This document shows positions 35,558 to 50,256 of a stretch of 64,000 bases of DNA, in pieces; position 1 is the stretch's first letter, and each line of letters begins with the position of its first letter. The notes below the pieces were generated by a model. The model had not been told where the DNA came from and did no database searches. It saw nothing but the letters and a program-made list of their open reading frames with translations. A program made the translations under genes and the position numbers. The DNA comes from Escherichia phage phiWec188: sequence record LC739537.1; one strand, written 5' to 3'.

Positions 35558-35814
35558 TTATCATTGGTATTCCCTATCAATTATTCCATATATACCTGTT
35601 ATTTTTGACACCCCTTTGGTCAAATATTAATCGGCAAAATATCTGGGGGGAGAGATTATTTCGATACCCTCTGTTCCTGCGATTTATCGGCAAGAATATC
35701 ATCGGCAAAGAGACAGAAAAGCCTTTGGTAGCAAGGATTTATGGCGAGTACGTCAGGACTGCTGAACGCGAATTTTCCGGCCCCTCCACTTCTGCGCGCC
35801 GGAATCTTCAAATA

Positions 35815-36020
35815 TCAATGAGAATAATTATCATTATCATTCGCATTCAATAACTTAGGCGATCTTTTCCCCTGCTATAAGGTTGGGCCTAACTTAAGCA
35901 CTACTTTTTAAACAATCCTTTATCAATCAACTACTTAACAACCTAAACATATGATTACTACGGTGTAAAGGTGCCGCCCATAACAGACTACCTATAAAAT
36001 AAATGAGAATGATTATTATT
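35815..36020. repeat. two copies of a TGAGAAT-N-ATTCTCA-type palindrome (Fur-box-like)
   Basis: atgagaataattatcattatcattcg near 35817 and aatgagaatgattattattc near 35998; same motif recurs six times at 48.85-49.07 kb. Confidence 0.45.
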
Positions 36021-36317
36021 CAGACAATTCTTACAACAAATCGACCAATAAATCAAGATTTTTCTGATTTTATTTACGTTTAAGAGAACGTGCTCAACAT
36101 ATCCGCCATAGGCGGCTATCTTTCCCCCGCAAACATTAAGCCTTTATCTTTCATCTTTCTGTATATCTGTACACTATGCAACCTGTCGCTATTCGCTCAT
36201 GTTGCTACGTGCTAATCCTTCACCATGCTAATGATGATCACACTGAACGATAGTGATAACTCATGTAATAATTACATTGATTATTATATTACGCTTAACT
36301 ATTCTTACATACAATGC

Positions 36318-36440
36318 TAATAATAAGCCAGCGTAATTAGTGTAAGCGTAATACGCTTGCAATAATTGCAAGCTACATAATCACAAGAAATAACTATCAC
36401 CGATAGTTATGATTGTGGGGGTGTAGTTGGCTTATTATTA
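36318..36440. repeat. large imperfect palindrome with a perfect 19-bp core
   Basis: gcttgcaatAattgcaagc (36355-36373) flanked by inverted 11-mers aataataagcc / ggcttattatt about 110 bp apart. Confidence 0.5.
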
Positions 36441-36519
36441 GCTCGCTACGTGTCCGGCGTAGCGTGCTAATGATGAGGCTTGGAATGATTCATTTTACAA
36501 TTATTACAGTCTTCACTAT

Positions 36520-36990
36520 TTCGGCAATAGGCACTATTTTACTAATAGTTGTTATTTTAATGATTTCATTTGTTATCGTTAGTTAGTTGGTTGTTTTGTC
36601 GTGTTATCGTTATCTTGCTTAGTATTCATCATGGTTTGATTGTTTGTCGTTATCAATCATCTTTCTATTATTCCTTTGATTATGATTAGTTTGCTTATTG
36701 TTTTAGGTTGTTGGTTGGTTAGTTGTTGCGAACTATTATCAACATTATAGTTATGCACTTATATTGCATAGATACGCAAGGTTAGATGATAATGGTTATC
36801 ATTGCACTGGAAAGGAGGAAAACAGCCTTTTTCGGTTGTTTGTTGTTGGTTGTTGATCGATTTTAACCGCTCTAAATAGCTCTCTAACAGCCTGTTGCCC
36901 TGGGAGGTATGGTTATTCGTTTGCTGGTTGATTAGCTCGATACCGCGATTTATTCATTTTTGTTCTGTGTCGGTTTTTCATAGGCGGAAG
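36520..36990. repeat. G+T-rich low-complexity region with iterated gttatcgtt / ttggttgtt motifs
   Basis: Plus strand almost devoid of C/A runs; repeated gttatcgtt, ggttggtt; no ORF of 60 aa or more across 35.85-36.9 kb. Confidence 0.5.
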
Positions 36991-37009
36991 CTATCAACAT
37001 TATTTGGAC

Positions 37010-37040
37010 AAAAAGAAAGGGCGCTTAGTGCGCCCCTTGT
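37010..37040 (-). terminator. intrinsic terminator (minus strand)
   Basis: Minus strand: ggggcgcACTAAgcgccc then tttcttttt; just 3' of gene 37052..37471. Confidence 0.7.
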
Positions 37041-37051
37041 TTTGTTGTCGA

Positions 37052-42037: not shown

Positions 42038-42136
42038 TGTGTTATCCTCTCGCTTGCTTTGGGAACTATTCCCGCCGCCCTATGAATTAAATATACACTA
42101 TCTCAAAATGATTGCAAACCTTTTTCTAAATTATTT

Positions 42137-47952: not shown

Positions 47953-48150
47953 TTATTCTTCACCCGCGATACGGCGGACACGTTCGGATTTAGTAGCGTG
48001 TTGGTCTTCTGTAATGACTCCCATTTCTAACAGGGAATCAATGAAAGATAGCACCGTTTCATGATCATCTTGAGGATGACTAAATTCAGTAAAGCCGTTT
48101 ACCACTACGTTGATTTGTCCTGCTTTCGCTACTATGTGCAATGTTGCCAT
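47953..48150 (-). CDS. hypothetical protein
   Basis: ORF 47953..48240; ATG 48150 downstream of cassette. Confidence 0.5.
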   Translation of the reverse strand: MATLHIVAKAGQINVVVNGFTEFSHPQDDHETVLSFIDSLLEMGVITEDQHATKSERVRRIAGEE

Positions 48151-48169
48151 GATCTTAACTCCAGATAGT

Positions 48170-48230
48170 GAGCAGCACCATTGCCGCCCTACGTGATGAA
48201 TAGTACGCCGCCACCTGGCGAACGTCAACC
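48170..48230 (-). promoter_or_regulatory. promoter plus 5' hairpin cassette (last copy)
   Basis: TTGACG -35 variant; hairpin with one G-U pair (ggcggcAATGgtgctgc). Confidence 0.45.
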
Positions 48231-48337
48231 ACTTTTTCAATCTTTTTCATTTCTTTTTTGCTTGCTATATATAAAGGAAAGGGCTATTATCTTTCTACCG
48301 CGCCAACCAGGGCGCACAACAAAGAAAGGGCGACACC

Positions 48338-48604
48338 ATGACAACTACTACATTACACCTTATGCACTCTTTAGGCTGGCAAGGCGGCACGGTCCACCAG
48401 GTAGCAAGCGCAACGGGCTTAAAGGTTGAAACCGTTCTCACCTTGGGCGATCATAAAGTGGAAGATATAGACCATTTTGATCCGTTCGCTGATGGTTATT
48501 TATGGGCTTGCAGTGGCGGCGGTGAAAACAAGATACCGCCAGGGGCGCGGGGTGATATGTATTTTTGGTTAGGCGTTCTTGCCTGGCAAGAAGACAAAAA
48601 ATAG
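48338..48604 (+). CDS. hypothetical protein
   Basis: 88 aa ORF on plus strand; agaaaggg RBS. Confidence 0.5.
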   Translation: MTTTTLHLMHSLGWQGGTVHQVASATGLKVETVLTLGDHKVEDIDHFDPFADGYLWACSGGGENKIPPGARGDMYFWLGVLAWQEDKK

Positions 48605-48606
48605 TC

Positions 48607-48635
48607 TTGACAAGCCCAGGGATCGGGCTTATACT
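48607..48635 (+). promoter_or_regulatory. near-consensus sigma70 promoter (TTGACA-N17-TATACT) with no ORF downstream
   Basis: Perfect -35, 17-bp spacer, TATACT -10, right after the stop at 48604. Confidence 0.5.
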
Positions 48636-48649
48636 GTTTTACATACAGA

Positions 48650-48740
48650 AGAGGAAGCGCCACCCCCCACGGCGTAAAGGCGGGGCTAACATACCAGGGG
48701 CACCGGTTGGAAGGTCGATCGCCGGGAGGCTGGGCGCTAT
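48650..48740 (+). ncRNA. candidate structured small RNA (GC-rich, ends gcgcc/ggcgc can pair)
   Basis: About 90 nt of locally high GC with several self-complementary segments directly downstream of the promoter; no RBS/ATG. Confidence 0.25.
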
Positions 48741-48847
48741 ATATTTGTAAAGAAATGTAAAGATAAAATAATCGCTTGCTTTCCTGGCTGGATCTGTTAT
48801 TCTTATTACATGGCGAGGGGACACGGGAGCGCGAGATAATCACCGGA

Positions 48848-49070
48848 CCTGCCCGTCATTCTCTAAATGAGAATGATTATCATTTACCTTATTGAATAAA
48901 AATCAATCTTATTTGGATAGTTGAATGAGAATCAATCTCATTCGCAAGGTGAGAATAAATCTCATTTACGCTATTGAATGCGAATCATTCGTATTTACCA
49001 TGTTAAATGAGAATCATTATCATTCTCATTCGTATTTCGATTTTAAGTGAGAATAATTCTCATTTCGGTA
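48848..49070. repeat. six tandem copies of the TGAGAAT-N-ATTCTCA palindrome (Fur-box-like)
   Basis: aatgagaatgattatcattta, aatgagaatcaatctcattcg, ggtgagaataaatctcattta, aatgcgaatcattcgtattta, aatgagaatcattatcattctcattcg, agtgagaataattctcatttcgg. Confidence 0.55.
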
Positions 49071-49080
49071 ATTTTCACGC

Positions 49081-49330
49081 AAACTTTAGAATTTGCTTTT
49101 CAACTTTCACTTTTGTAAAAGCAAAAAAACTTTAAATACCTGGTGCGCGCGACTTTTTTAAAAATTTTTCTCGGTTTTTTGTTTTGCAATCTGGTCCACC
49201 CATTTGAGATAATGTGTGTAAACTTTAGAATTTGGTTTTGGATTCTCGTTTTTGTAAACTCATAAAAAGTTTAAATAATTGTAGGGATTTTTGAGATAGT
49301 TTGCTTGTAAGATTTGAGATAATCTTTCCT
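49081..49330. repeat. direct repeats (about 40 bp, two copies) plus three tttgagata motifs
   Basis: aaactttagaatttgcttttcaactttcacttttgtaaaagc (49081) versus aaactttagaatttggttttggattctcgtttttgtaaactc (49224); tttgagata at about 49203, 49291, 49313. Confidence 0.5.
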
Positions 49331-49517
49331 GAAGATGCTACGCAGCCTACAACCTACCTGAATGCTCGTCTAACGAGGTTAACTCTAAAAGATGAGTGTT
49401 GGTGTAGCTAAAGAGAAAAAGGCTCTCTACGGAGGTTGTAGGAGCCTTTTTCTGTGGCACAAAGTTGACGTATTCTTTTTAAAAACGAATTTTTTCAAAA
49501 TATCACGAATATCGCCT

Positions 49518-50045
49518 TTATGGTATTTTGGCTGGGAACAGGATTTTAATCAGATTGTTGTGGTATTGTCCTAAAAGATTCTGCCCTTTCCAGTTGGCAG
49601 GATTAAGCACCCCTGGTTCATACATACCCATTCCAATTCCGTAAACCTTATCGTAAGGGCTGGCCTCAACGAATGTTTTGAATTGATACAGGCGCAAGTC
49701 AGAGTAAAGATCAGGGTTCTGTGTATACTTCAAGCATAAGCCTCGCATTACGATACGCTCTCGGTGCTCTTCCCACACGTCATTATTAAAACCAGACACC
49801 GCTCGACCCATACGTTTGTAGTACGCCTGTCCCTTCTCGTCGTCACGCTTCATTGAGTGATAAAGGATAGCTGCTGCGATTACCTGATCCTTGAACAGCA
49901 AAGCCTTACGCCACATCATGTATTGCTCTACACAACAGAAAGTGTCACTGTACCCTGGTTCCGTCTCTGTAAATGGCGCAATGTACCAATTGCTAAACAC
50001 ATCTTTATGTGAAAAGAAGAATACATATTCATCAGTTATTCGCAT
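49518..50045 (-). CDS. NADAR-domain protein (YbiA/DUF1768-like)
   Basis: 175 aa; FSNW, VEQYMMWRKA, NLLGQY segments parallel the conserved NADAR blocks of E. coli YbiA. Confidence 0.6.
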   Translation of the reverse strand: MRITDEYVFFFSHKDVFSNWYIAPFTETEPGYSDTFCCVEQYMMWRKALLFKDQVIAAAILYHSMKRDDEKGQAYYKRMGRAVSGFNNDVWEEHRERIVMRGLCLKYTQNPDLYSDLRLYQFKTFVEASPYDKVYGIGMGMYEPGVLNPANWKGQNLLGQYHNNLIKILFPAKIP

Positions 50046-50256
50046 TTTTCATACCTCTTAAGACTTCAGCTTGCCCGTCTTGAAAAGCTTTCATCAGAAC
50101 TATCTTAAGATTGACTTCCAAGCGTTCTTCATCCTCTTTATAACAATCCAACACTGCCTTAAGTTCATTATAGTGGTTCAGAATAGGTTTAAAGATTTCA
50201 TGATCTGCTAAACGTGCCATAGTTTCTCCTTTGTTAGTCCATCCACCAGTAGCCAT
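50032..50256 (-). CDS. hypothetical protein
   Basis: 74 aa ORF. Confidence 0.45.
   Translation of the reverse strand: MATGGWTNKGETMARLADHEIFKPILNHYNELKAVLDCYKEDEERLEVNLKIVLMKAFQDGQAEVLRGMKNANN

Follow-up and report, generated by a model that had tools for sequence, protein, structure and literature searches.

We have analysed a non-coding locus in a stretch of 64,000 nucleotides of the Escherichia phage phiWec188 genome (sequence record LC739537.1), where two direct repeats and a short motif present three times had been pointed out in an original prediction made from the letters of the DNA. This whole stretch, read on one strand, is called the window, and all positions are given in it. The elements are found in a gene-free gap of about 913 bp (48605-49517), which is longer than the 650 bp first proposed. 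As had been predicted, the gap is flanked by a plus-strand open reading frame (ORF) of 88 amino acids (48338-48604) and by a leftward, minus-strand NADAR gene (49518-50045; Pfam NADAR, E=4.7e-34). The region 48600-49520 shows 100% identity to Escherichia phage phiWec190 (LC739539.1), a phAPEC8-like myovirus of the Stephanstirmvirinae with a genome of ~150 kb, in the record of which the locus is an unannotated gap flanked by two 'hypothetical protein' genes; in near-mode search the same region matched 138 phage records.

The repeat search established that the long element is indeed present in two copies, DR1 and DR2 (Table 1), whose starts are 139 bp apart, in line with the ~140 bp proposed; each copy is 58 nt long and not ~40 bp, both open with AAACTTTAGAATTTG, and 47 of the 58 positions are identical (81%). 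The 9-mer TTTGAGATA occurs three times as claimed, always on the plus strand, at 49203, 49290 (written as 49291 in the original prediction) and 49313, with start-to-start spacings of 87 and 23 bp, and the three-copy family of boxes reads TTTGAGATA(A/G)T. These sequences are specific to the locus: the 15-mer with which the repeat starts is found exactly twice, and the next best site in the 64 kb carries at least 3 mismatches; the degenerate 28-mer TTTTGTAAAN5AAAAANTTTAAATA, which represents the 3' half of the repeat, gave 2 matches against 0.00 expected in shuffles; TGAGATA has only four further occurrences across the remaining 63 kb, and no repeat or box motif recurs elsewhere within the window. 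A general promoter motif was therefore rejected, since the 15-mer, the 28-mer and TTTGAGATA are essentially restricted to this place.

Table 1. Positions of the repeats, boxes and other features in the window (nt, nucleotides; PWM, position weight matrix)
Feature	Position	Strand	Remarks
DR1, 58-nt direct repeat	49081-49138	+	AAACTTTAGAATTTG...TTTTGTAAA...AAAAACTTTAAATA; 53/58 identical to phAPEC8 DR1; near-invariant in 11 aligned genomes
DR2, 58-nt direct repeat	49220-49277	+	Repeat search; 48/58 identical to phAPEC8 DR2
Box 1, TTTGAGATAAT	49203-49213	+	10/11 identical to phAPEC8; flanks 33-58%
Box 2, TTTGAGATAGT	49290-49300	+	Repeat search, motif count, phAPEC8 alignment
Box 3, TTTGAGATAAT	49313-49323	+	23 bp past box 2
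Middle unit between DR1 and DR2	49139-49219	+	T6A5T5 tract, GCGCGC island, box 1, promoter-like sites; 58% identity to phAPEC8
Spacer, weakly conserved	49324-49413	+	54% identity to phAPEC8; deleted along with box 3 in the EP57 record
Promoter-like site TTGCAA-18-GATAAT with TG	49184-49213	+	Box 1 as extended -10; PWM 10.2 bits
Promoter-like site TTGAGA-16-TAGAAT	49204-49231	+	Box 1 as -35, DR2 start as -10; ~10.5 bits by hand
Promoter-like site TTGTAA-16-AATAAT	49252-49279		Consensus scan
P1, near-consensus sigma-70 promoter TTGACA-17-TATACT	48607-48635	+	11/12 matches; hexamers kept and spacer diverging in nine lineages
Element A, GC-rich structured-RNA-like block, ~100 nt	48642-48745	+	Conserved in 231 records at 70-96%
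P2 (TTGCTT-16-TATTCT) and conserved element B	48776-48860	+	Alignment, promoter scan; P2 window coordinates read by eye
Fur-box-like palindrome array (TGAGAATnATTCTCA), directly upstream of DR1	48860-49065	.	Repeat search, motif count, Fur PWM
Intrinsic terminator, bidirectional, at the end of the module and of the NADAR operon	49414-49453	.	Inverted repeat I16, 12-nt perfect arms
AAATATCA / GAATATCG repeats, right boundary of the module	49498-49514	+	1-4 copies, plus strand, 9/9 lineages
Fur PWM match	48869		22.5 bits
Fur PWM match	35820		20.5 bits
Fur PWM match	49003		19.0 bits
Fur PWM match	49009		18.2 bits
Fur PWM match	36788		17.2 bits

Conservation was followed first of all among the phAPEC8-like phages. 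A distant-mode search with 49060-49470 returned 70 records, nearly all with at least 94% coverage and ~73% identity, most of which carry no annotation beneath the match. The 11 aligned genomes fall into two clades, named here for the purpose of this report: a Wec clade, made up of phiWec190, phiWec179, PsgM04F and one IMG/VR contig, and a Phapecoctavirus clade. The layout is the same in the two clades: DR1 and DR2 are 139 or 138 bp apart, the boxes follow one another at 87 and 23 bp, and the spacings hold within 1 bp in ~70 genomes. Between phiWec190 and phAPEC8 the identity is 91% in DR1, 83% in DR2 and 91% in each 11-bp box, whereas the segments between repeats and boxes retain 17-58% and the stretch 49324-49413 retains 54%; the neighbouring genes are 80-91% identical, with 81% in the NADAR gene and 91% in the 88-aa ORF. 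In the EP57 record (L012 1118-1130) the segment from just past box 2 to the start of the terminator, with box 3 and the variable spacer, is missing; this record is short (130.7 kb) and many tiny ORFs are annotated in it, so that an assembly artefact is possible.

These islands of conservation read as a phylogenetic footprint, which indicates that the repeats and boxes are under purifying selection. The two long repeats also seem to share one pattern of constraint, as expected of two sites with the same job: the five DR1 sites that differ between the clades are all variable in DR2 as well (hypergeometric P=5.5e-5), and DR1 and DR2 carry the same substitution at sites 9 and 11 (Wec clade, TAGAATTTG; Phapecoctavirus, TAAATTTTG). 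Identity is higher between orthologous copies (53/58 and 48/58) than between paralogous ones (47-49/58), thus the duplication is older than the split of the clades and the copies were not homogenised by wholesale gene conversion. A lack of conservation in any relative had been named in the original prediction as speaking against it; this objection clearly fails, since ~70 phAPEC8-like genomes keep the repeats, the boxes and the spacings. Because of this conservation and of the footprint pattern, and because homologous arrays occur in a second subfamily as described below, the repeats and boxes can be regarded as functional cis-elements, which are most naturally read as an array with several binding sites.

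It might be argued that the repeats are a neutral remnant of a local duplication, or else a packaging (pac or terminus) signal. Slippage readily makes short repeats in AT-rich DNA, and the AA/TT dinucleotides show a 7-bp periodicity here (z=4.7); nevertheless the footprint pattern together with the conservation across subfamilies rules out neutrality, and the physical terminus maps 13 kb away, at ~36 kb rather than 49 kb, for which reason a terminal repeat or pac site was rejected. On these grounds both neutral duplication and a packaging function can be considered essentially excluded.

The conservation extends beyond the phAPEC8-like phages. The 271 bp at 48600-48870 have 70-96% DNA identity in 231 phage records, which belong to the Stephanstirmvirinae (Phapecoctavirus, Justusliebigvirus, KP13-16) and to the Vequintavirinae (Seunavirus, Mydovirus, and Cronobacter, Pectobacterium, Enterobacter and Erwinia phages). 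The order of the elements was read in nine lineages and it is constant: a small plus-strand ORF, P1, element A, TTTGTAAAGAnnTGTAAAGA, P2 and element B are followed by 1-7 palindromes AAATGAGAATnATTCTCATT, 2-3 direct repeats (44-79 nt) and 0-4 GAGATA boxes, and then by a variable stretch, AAATATC repeats and the end of the next minus-strand gene. By this comparison the repeats and boxes make up the right-hand third of a conserved non-coding module of ~0.9 kb, and this gene-free control region is common to about 150-230 large enterobacterial phages.

In the more remote genera the repeats are organized in the same manner, with letters that differ by lineage. Start-to-start spacings in the three-unit arrays are 75+67 bp in EmilieFrey, 67+75 in SSE121, 66+74 in KB57 and 67+76 in 4MG, so the span from the first unit to the last is 140-143 bp in Justusliebigvirus, Seunavirus and Mydovirus. 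The DR1-DR2 distance of 138/139 bp fits such an array, and 49139-49219 is probably a diverged middle repeat unit, its homology to unit R2 of EmilieFrey having been judged by eye. Three units are found in Pectobacterium phage POP18 as well; in KP13-16 there are two repeats, at a distance of 187 bp. The sequence of the repeat is AAACTTTAAAT... in Phapecoctavirus and Justusliebigvirus, A5T6...GAATACG...TCGATCGAGAAC in Seunavirus, Mydovirus and POP18, and ATGGATTTT...ATGTC.AAAATGCTA in KP13-16; the Seunavirus-type array was present in 77 further records. The boxes can be recognized at this distance as well, since three copies of TTTGAGATA are present both in KB57, where they are spaced 22 and 87 bp, and in 4MG, the close pair being 22 bp apart where phiWec190 has 23 bp, and TTTGAGATAATCT is identical between the Klebsiella phage KB57 (Vequintavirinae) and phiWec190. 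A scan of IMG/VR for box pairs gave 81 loci, mostly on unrelated contigs, and was uninformative. An architecture that is kept while the sequence of the repeat turns over is as expected of sites co-evolving with a binding protein. Judged by its conservation, the array of repeats and boxes thus presents itself as a set of cis-acting DNA signals, forming the AT-rich right arm of a non-coding control module.

The left part of this module is of a different character. Downstream of P1 lies element A. In each of the two subfamilies, one of its base pairs is A-U in some phages and G-C in others, and the tip of one hairpin is not of constant length, which hints at a structured RNA. Element A had no match in Rfam. 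The whole segment 48607-48860 is a candidate for a new phage non-coding RNA, or for a primer RNA. P2 aligns with TTGATC-16-TATTAT of Seunavirus. At the other end, the terminator hairpin is kept in all relatives, and the phAPEC8 record annotates a terminator there. Beyond it, at the right edge of the module, copies of AAATATC(A) are placed 9-12 nt apart beside the stop codon of whichever gene comes next; another copy, at 35810, adjoins a palindrome of the terminal region.

The presence of a possible RNA next to the repeats raises the question of whether these might also work as RNA, in a transcript with 2-3 AU-rich units, started from promoter P3 in the Vequintavirinae and here from the sites at 49184-49231 or by read-through, which would either titrate a host RNA-binding protein or RNase as decoy or sponge or be a regulatory RNA. 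A strong promoter stands directly upstream of the array in SSE121, KB57 and 4MG, a terminator-like hairpin follows the module, the neighbouring element A resembles structured RNA, and the 3' segment of phiWec190 (49329-49462) folds well (z=-4.7). However, RNAalifold gives only the terminator and a few invariant AU pairs, the covariation term being about -0.5 to -0.6 kcal/mol; no Rfam family matches (no notable match at E<=5); there is no good promoter upstream of DR1 in the Stephanstirmvirinae; and conservation is at the level of the primary sequence, in discrete islands. We consider a function as RNA rather unlikely. Searches for tRNA, tmRNA and Rfam families at the locus found none, a small RNA at 49329-49462 was rejected since its fold, good in phiWec190, is not conserved, and coding was rejected too, the frames being 42 aa at most and broken by 1-nt indels between the clades.

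Transcription into the array deserves more attention. A consensus scan of 48000-50200 found 12 promoter-like sites against 4.7 +/- 1.9 expected, three of them within the repeat/box region (Table 1), and the sites at 49184-49213 and 49204-49231 are directed into the downstream AT-rich DNA, that is, into DR2. In phiWec190 boxes 1-3 contain GATAAT, GATAGT and GATAAT, each with TG in front. Similar signals were seen in relatives: SSE121, 4MG and KB57 of the Vequintavirinae have a near-consensus P3 just upstream of the repeats (TTGACT-17-GATACT with TG in KB57, where the -10 is the TGAGATACT box; TTGACA-18-GAAAAT with TG as the equivalent in SSE121 and 4MG), and the repeats of KP13-16 are themselves near-consensus minus-strand promoters (TTGACA-17-CATAAT, 13.2 bits; TGGACA-17-CATAAT, 10.1 bits).

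Such sites would be the essence of a tandem promoter and regulator array that takes no part in replication. In it, the TTTGAGATAAT boxes would be extended -10 promoters (TG-n-GATAAT) used by the host RNA polymerase and firing rightward to the terminator at 49453, with 49324-49413 as the body of the transcript; the 58-nt repeats would be upstream, activator-binding or bidirectional promoter modules; and the array would control non-coding or insulating transcription between two leftward blocks of early genes, possibly under the Fur-like operators. Tandem early promoters are clustered in this way in T7 (A1-A3), and extended -10 sigma-70 promoters form the class for comparison. The likeness consists in the TG-n-GATAAT pattern, in boxes which are oriented alike, and like P1 and P2, with a terminator after them, and in the KB57 box, which together with TTGACT 17 bp upstream makes a near-consensus promoter. 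Box 1 can be combined with a -35 TTGCAA 18 bp away and TG, and it can be used as a -35 itself in TTGAGA-16-TAGAAT. The P3 equivalents of SSE121 and 4MG, the minus-strand promoters of KP13-16 and the local enrichment of promoter-like sites all agree with this explanation, and the variable sites of the repeats lie in the would-be promoter spacer.

On the other hand, the scores are modest. They were obtained with a sigma-70 PWM built from approximate hexamer frequencies, and only the sites at 49184-49213 and 49204-49231 reach ~10 bits, which is near the 95th percentile (10.6) of random AT-rich 70-mers, while those within DR1 and DR2 (6.9-8.9 bits) are at the chance level (7.3 +/- 1.8). Most of the boxes have no -35, the repeat units of the Vequintavirinae are not promoter-like, and the body of the would-be transcript, with a conservation of only 54%, has no fold in common among relatives. 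Furthermore, the T at -7 is lost in several boxes: box 3 is GATAAC in 6 of the 7 aligned Phapecoctavirus genomes and deleted in the seventh, EP57; box 2 is without this T in tuntematon and nieznany; and several boxes of 4MG lack it too, whereas the 9-mer core is almost invariant. A core better kept than the T at -7 suggests a recogniser other than, or besides, sigma-70, and favours a protein-binding site. A purely transcriptional array is possible and, on this evidence, somewhat doubtful.

Other types of promoter were rejected. A sigma-28 promoter, TAAAGTTT-N11-ACCGAAAT on the minus strand of DR1, is not conserved in Phapecoctavirus as judged by eye. A T4-type late promoter (TATAAATA compared with TTTAAATA) was not accepted either, TTTAAATA occurring only five times in the window and not upstream of genes; rV5 is without homologues of gp33/45/55 (PMC3606486). 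The 'PHIRE promoters' of phAPEC8 are not related to this motif: among the leftward early genes (phAPEC8 L004 176-3593; window 42040-42110) each sigma-70 promoter is followed by the conserved hairpin GTAGGGCGGCAATGGTGCCGCTCA, which bears this label in the phAPEC8 record and looks more like a stem-loop of a 5' leader. One promoter of this group, at window position 42099, carries TTTGAGATAGT in its spacer.

The palindromes which the original prediction had placed just upstream of the repeats proved to be real. The motif TGAGAATnATTCTCA has 7 matches in the window against 0.43 expected, and five copies with at most 2 mismatches are gathered at 48868-49062, the final one ending 19 bp short of DR1. 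Their number varies between 1 and 7 among relatives, phiWec190 having three more than phiWec179, and in the Vequintavirinae they stand just upstream of P3. The palindromes resemble Fur boxes (E. coli consensus GATAATGATAATCATTATC; 7-1-7 form TGATAATnATTATCA). A Fur PWM was made from the 11 Gram-negative Fur boxes listed in PMC10665472, which score 13.7-26.3 bits with it themselves; its five best matches in the 64 kb all fall on palindromes and within this range, three of the five being at the locus, and 16 matches reached 12 bits in the window compared with 2.2 +/- 1.5 in shuffles. Additionally, ATGAGAATCATTAT is common to the palindromes and to the published Fur box GATAATGAGAATCATTATT. The phage consensus differs in having G/C where Fur boxes have T/A (TGAGAAT / ATTCTCA), and an array of 5-7 boxes is unusual for a lytic phage. 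From the similarity it is a reasonable inference that host Fur binds the palindromes; a dimeric protein encoded by the phage could be an alternative ligand. Fur-like palindromes of the same family are also found in the terminal region of the genome, at 35819, 36004 and 36787.

The AT-rich DNA of unwinding type, in a region which is 71% AT, adjoins the boxes. The least stable 400-bp stretch of the whole 64 kb is 48877-49276 (-1.200 kcal/mol per step, compared with a mean of -1.321 and a standard deviation of 0.032), and the least stable 200-bp stretch is 48858-49057. The repeats lie in the most easily melted DNA of the window, and promoters point into it.

We tentatively prefer the explanation that the module is a transcription-activated replication origin, with the repeats as its AT-rich arm. 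The boxes would be iteron-like sites for a sequence-specific protein, some copies doubling as extended -10 cores, and the long repeats would be larger protein-binding or unwinding units placed where the DNA of the region melts most easily. Rightward promoters of the host RNA polymerase (P1, P2 and the sites at 49184-49231; P3 in the Vequintavirinae) would transcribe into the repeats, the adjacent array of Fur-like operators might gate this transcription, and the structured transcript from upstream might be a further component of the origin. Both the binding of a protein and the role in replication are what we infer from the arrangement of the elements. The original prediction had named origins and multi-site regulator binding together; this was supported in part, with the binding array as the natural reading, and the choice between an origin, the control of transcription and some other function cannot be made from the sequence. 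The tandem promoter and regulator array is nearly as likely as the origin, and it has direct support in KB57 and KP13-16.

Several well-known systems can be compared with an origin of this kind. In T4, ori(uvsY) and ori(34) consist of a promoter and a downstream unwinding element, and oriE combines an early promoter with small rep ORFs and iterons; the primary origin of T7 has tandem promoters and an AT-rich stretch. The module resembles these in that host-type promoters fire into AT-rich, repeat-bearing and easily melted DNA, that a small early ORF stands beside the non-coding region and that short direct repeats are present; however, its repeats are 58 nt long instead of ~12 nt, and the T4 and T7 origins are without the structured-RNA-like block and the palindrome array. 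The crr region of phage P4 comprises two 120-bp direct repeats, each with short iterons. Similarly to P4 crr and to iteron origins in general, a non-palindromic 9-mer is present three times in one orientation with one pair 23 bp apart (about two helical turns), the boxes are flanked by long direct repeats, and AT-rich DNA is adjacent. The difference is that there are three boxes only, missing in some relatives, that DnaA or IHF sites are absent and that no Rep or alpha-type protein was identified.

A number of observations weigh against the origin. An exact DnaA box (TTWTNCACA) or a consensus site for IHF was not found in 48600-49470, the GC skew makes no turn at the locus, and the A-tracts are not phased with the helix, for which reason (no phasing at 10-11 bp) intrinsically bent DNA was also rejected. 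The other AT-rich non-coding region, the one at the terminal repeat (35.6-37.0 kb), has a similarly low stability. When the boxes were considered as iterons, there were just three same-strand copies of TTTGAGATA, 87 and 23 bp apart, and the motif is missing in some relatives: it is absent from SSE121 and EmilieFrey, where the module is present. Boxes 2 and 3 face away from the repeats, and in KB57 a TGAGATA box clearly serves as the -10 of a good promoter, which suits the purely transcriptional explanation equally. No initiator gene was identified. The 88-aa ORF beside the module (phrog_19316) is conserved in the Stephanstirmvirinae and in some Serratia phages; its product was modelled confidently (pLDDT 94) as five helices, for which no informative homologue, significant structural neighbour or informative fold match was found, and the Vequintavirinae have no homologue of it, an unrelated small ORF occupying the same position. 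The neighbouring 379-aa ATPase gave generic AAA matches only.

The distance of the locus from the end of the genome allows one more comparison. The terminal repeat of Schickermooser, 329 bp and identical at both ends of the record (given as 328 bp in PMC6563267), maps to ~35.77-36.10 kb of the window, from which the locus is 12,986 bp away (~13.0 kb, 8.6% of the genome). By homology with Schickermooser, the terminal repeat is placed within 35560-37050, another long stretch that is AT-rich (GC 0.35) and free of genes. By coordinate mapping, window positions below ~20076 would fall past the end of the 150,689-bp phiWec190 record; this mapping implies that the window is a rotated or differently opened version of the genome, the record ends not being the physical termini inferred from Schickermooser.

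In T5, the segment that enters in the first step is 7.9% of the genome, and the corresponding region has 66-bp direct repeats and many palindromes whose order is conserved among relatives (bioRxiv 10.1101/866236). By analogy, the locus might be an injection stop or boundary element that pauses DNA entry or marks the end of a first-entering pre-early segment. Besides the similar distance from the terminus (~8-9% of the genome in both), small early genes with sigma-70 promoters lie between the end and the locus and are read in the direction of that end; one palindrome family is found at the terminal-repeat region and at the locus, recalling the paired inverted-repeat blocks of T5; and the 913-bp block is likewise untranslated, with its element order kept across two subfamilies. 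Nevertheless, the sequences of the T5 injection stop region ('repeat region 3') are unrelated to the module, the paired DnaA boxes (3 bp apart in inverted repeats) proposed as the T5 hallmark are absent, the terminal repeat is 329 bp and not ~10 kb with the locus outside it, and two-step injection is not known among these myoviruses. A stop signal of the T5 type seems quite improbable.

Our literature search returned no description of the locus, of its RNA or of an origin in these phages. In the rV5 genome paper an origin was sought by skew analysis without success, and an unexplained 'non-coding' box was drawn (PMC3606486). Iterated cis-elements in the control and origin regions of phages are already known; the present combination, conserved across two subfamilies, appears to be undescribed. 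The phAPEC8-like and rV5-like phages are widely isolated and used as therapeutic candidates, and annotation pipelines leave the module blank or fill it with spurious small ORFs.

The three 9-mer boxes, the two 58-nt repeats and the Fur-like operators could serve as precise elements for origin mapping, promoter mapping and pull-downs. Taken as a whole, with its promoter-driven structured RNA, its array of Fur boxes, its repeats and boxes and the matching pair of palindromes at the genome terminus, the module might, as a rather speculative and improbable extension, be a hitherto undescribed control hub of the rV5-like and phAPEC8-like myoviruses, where host Fur, and with it the iron status, would gate transcription into a repeat-bearing origin or switch and make the replication or early development of the phage responsive to iron, or else a T5-like checkpoint of DNA entry. 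If the link with Fur is true, it would tie the iron status of the host to the lytic development of the phage.

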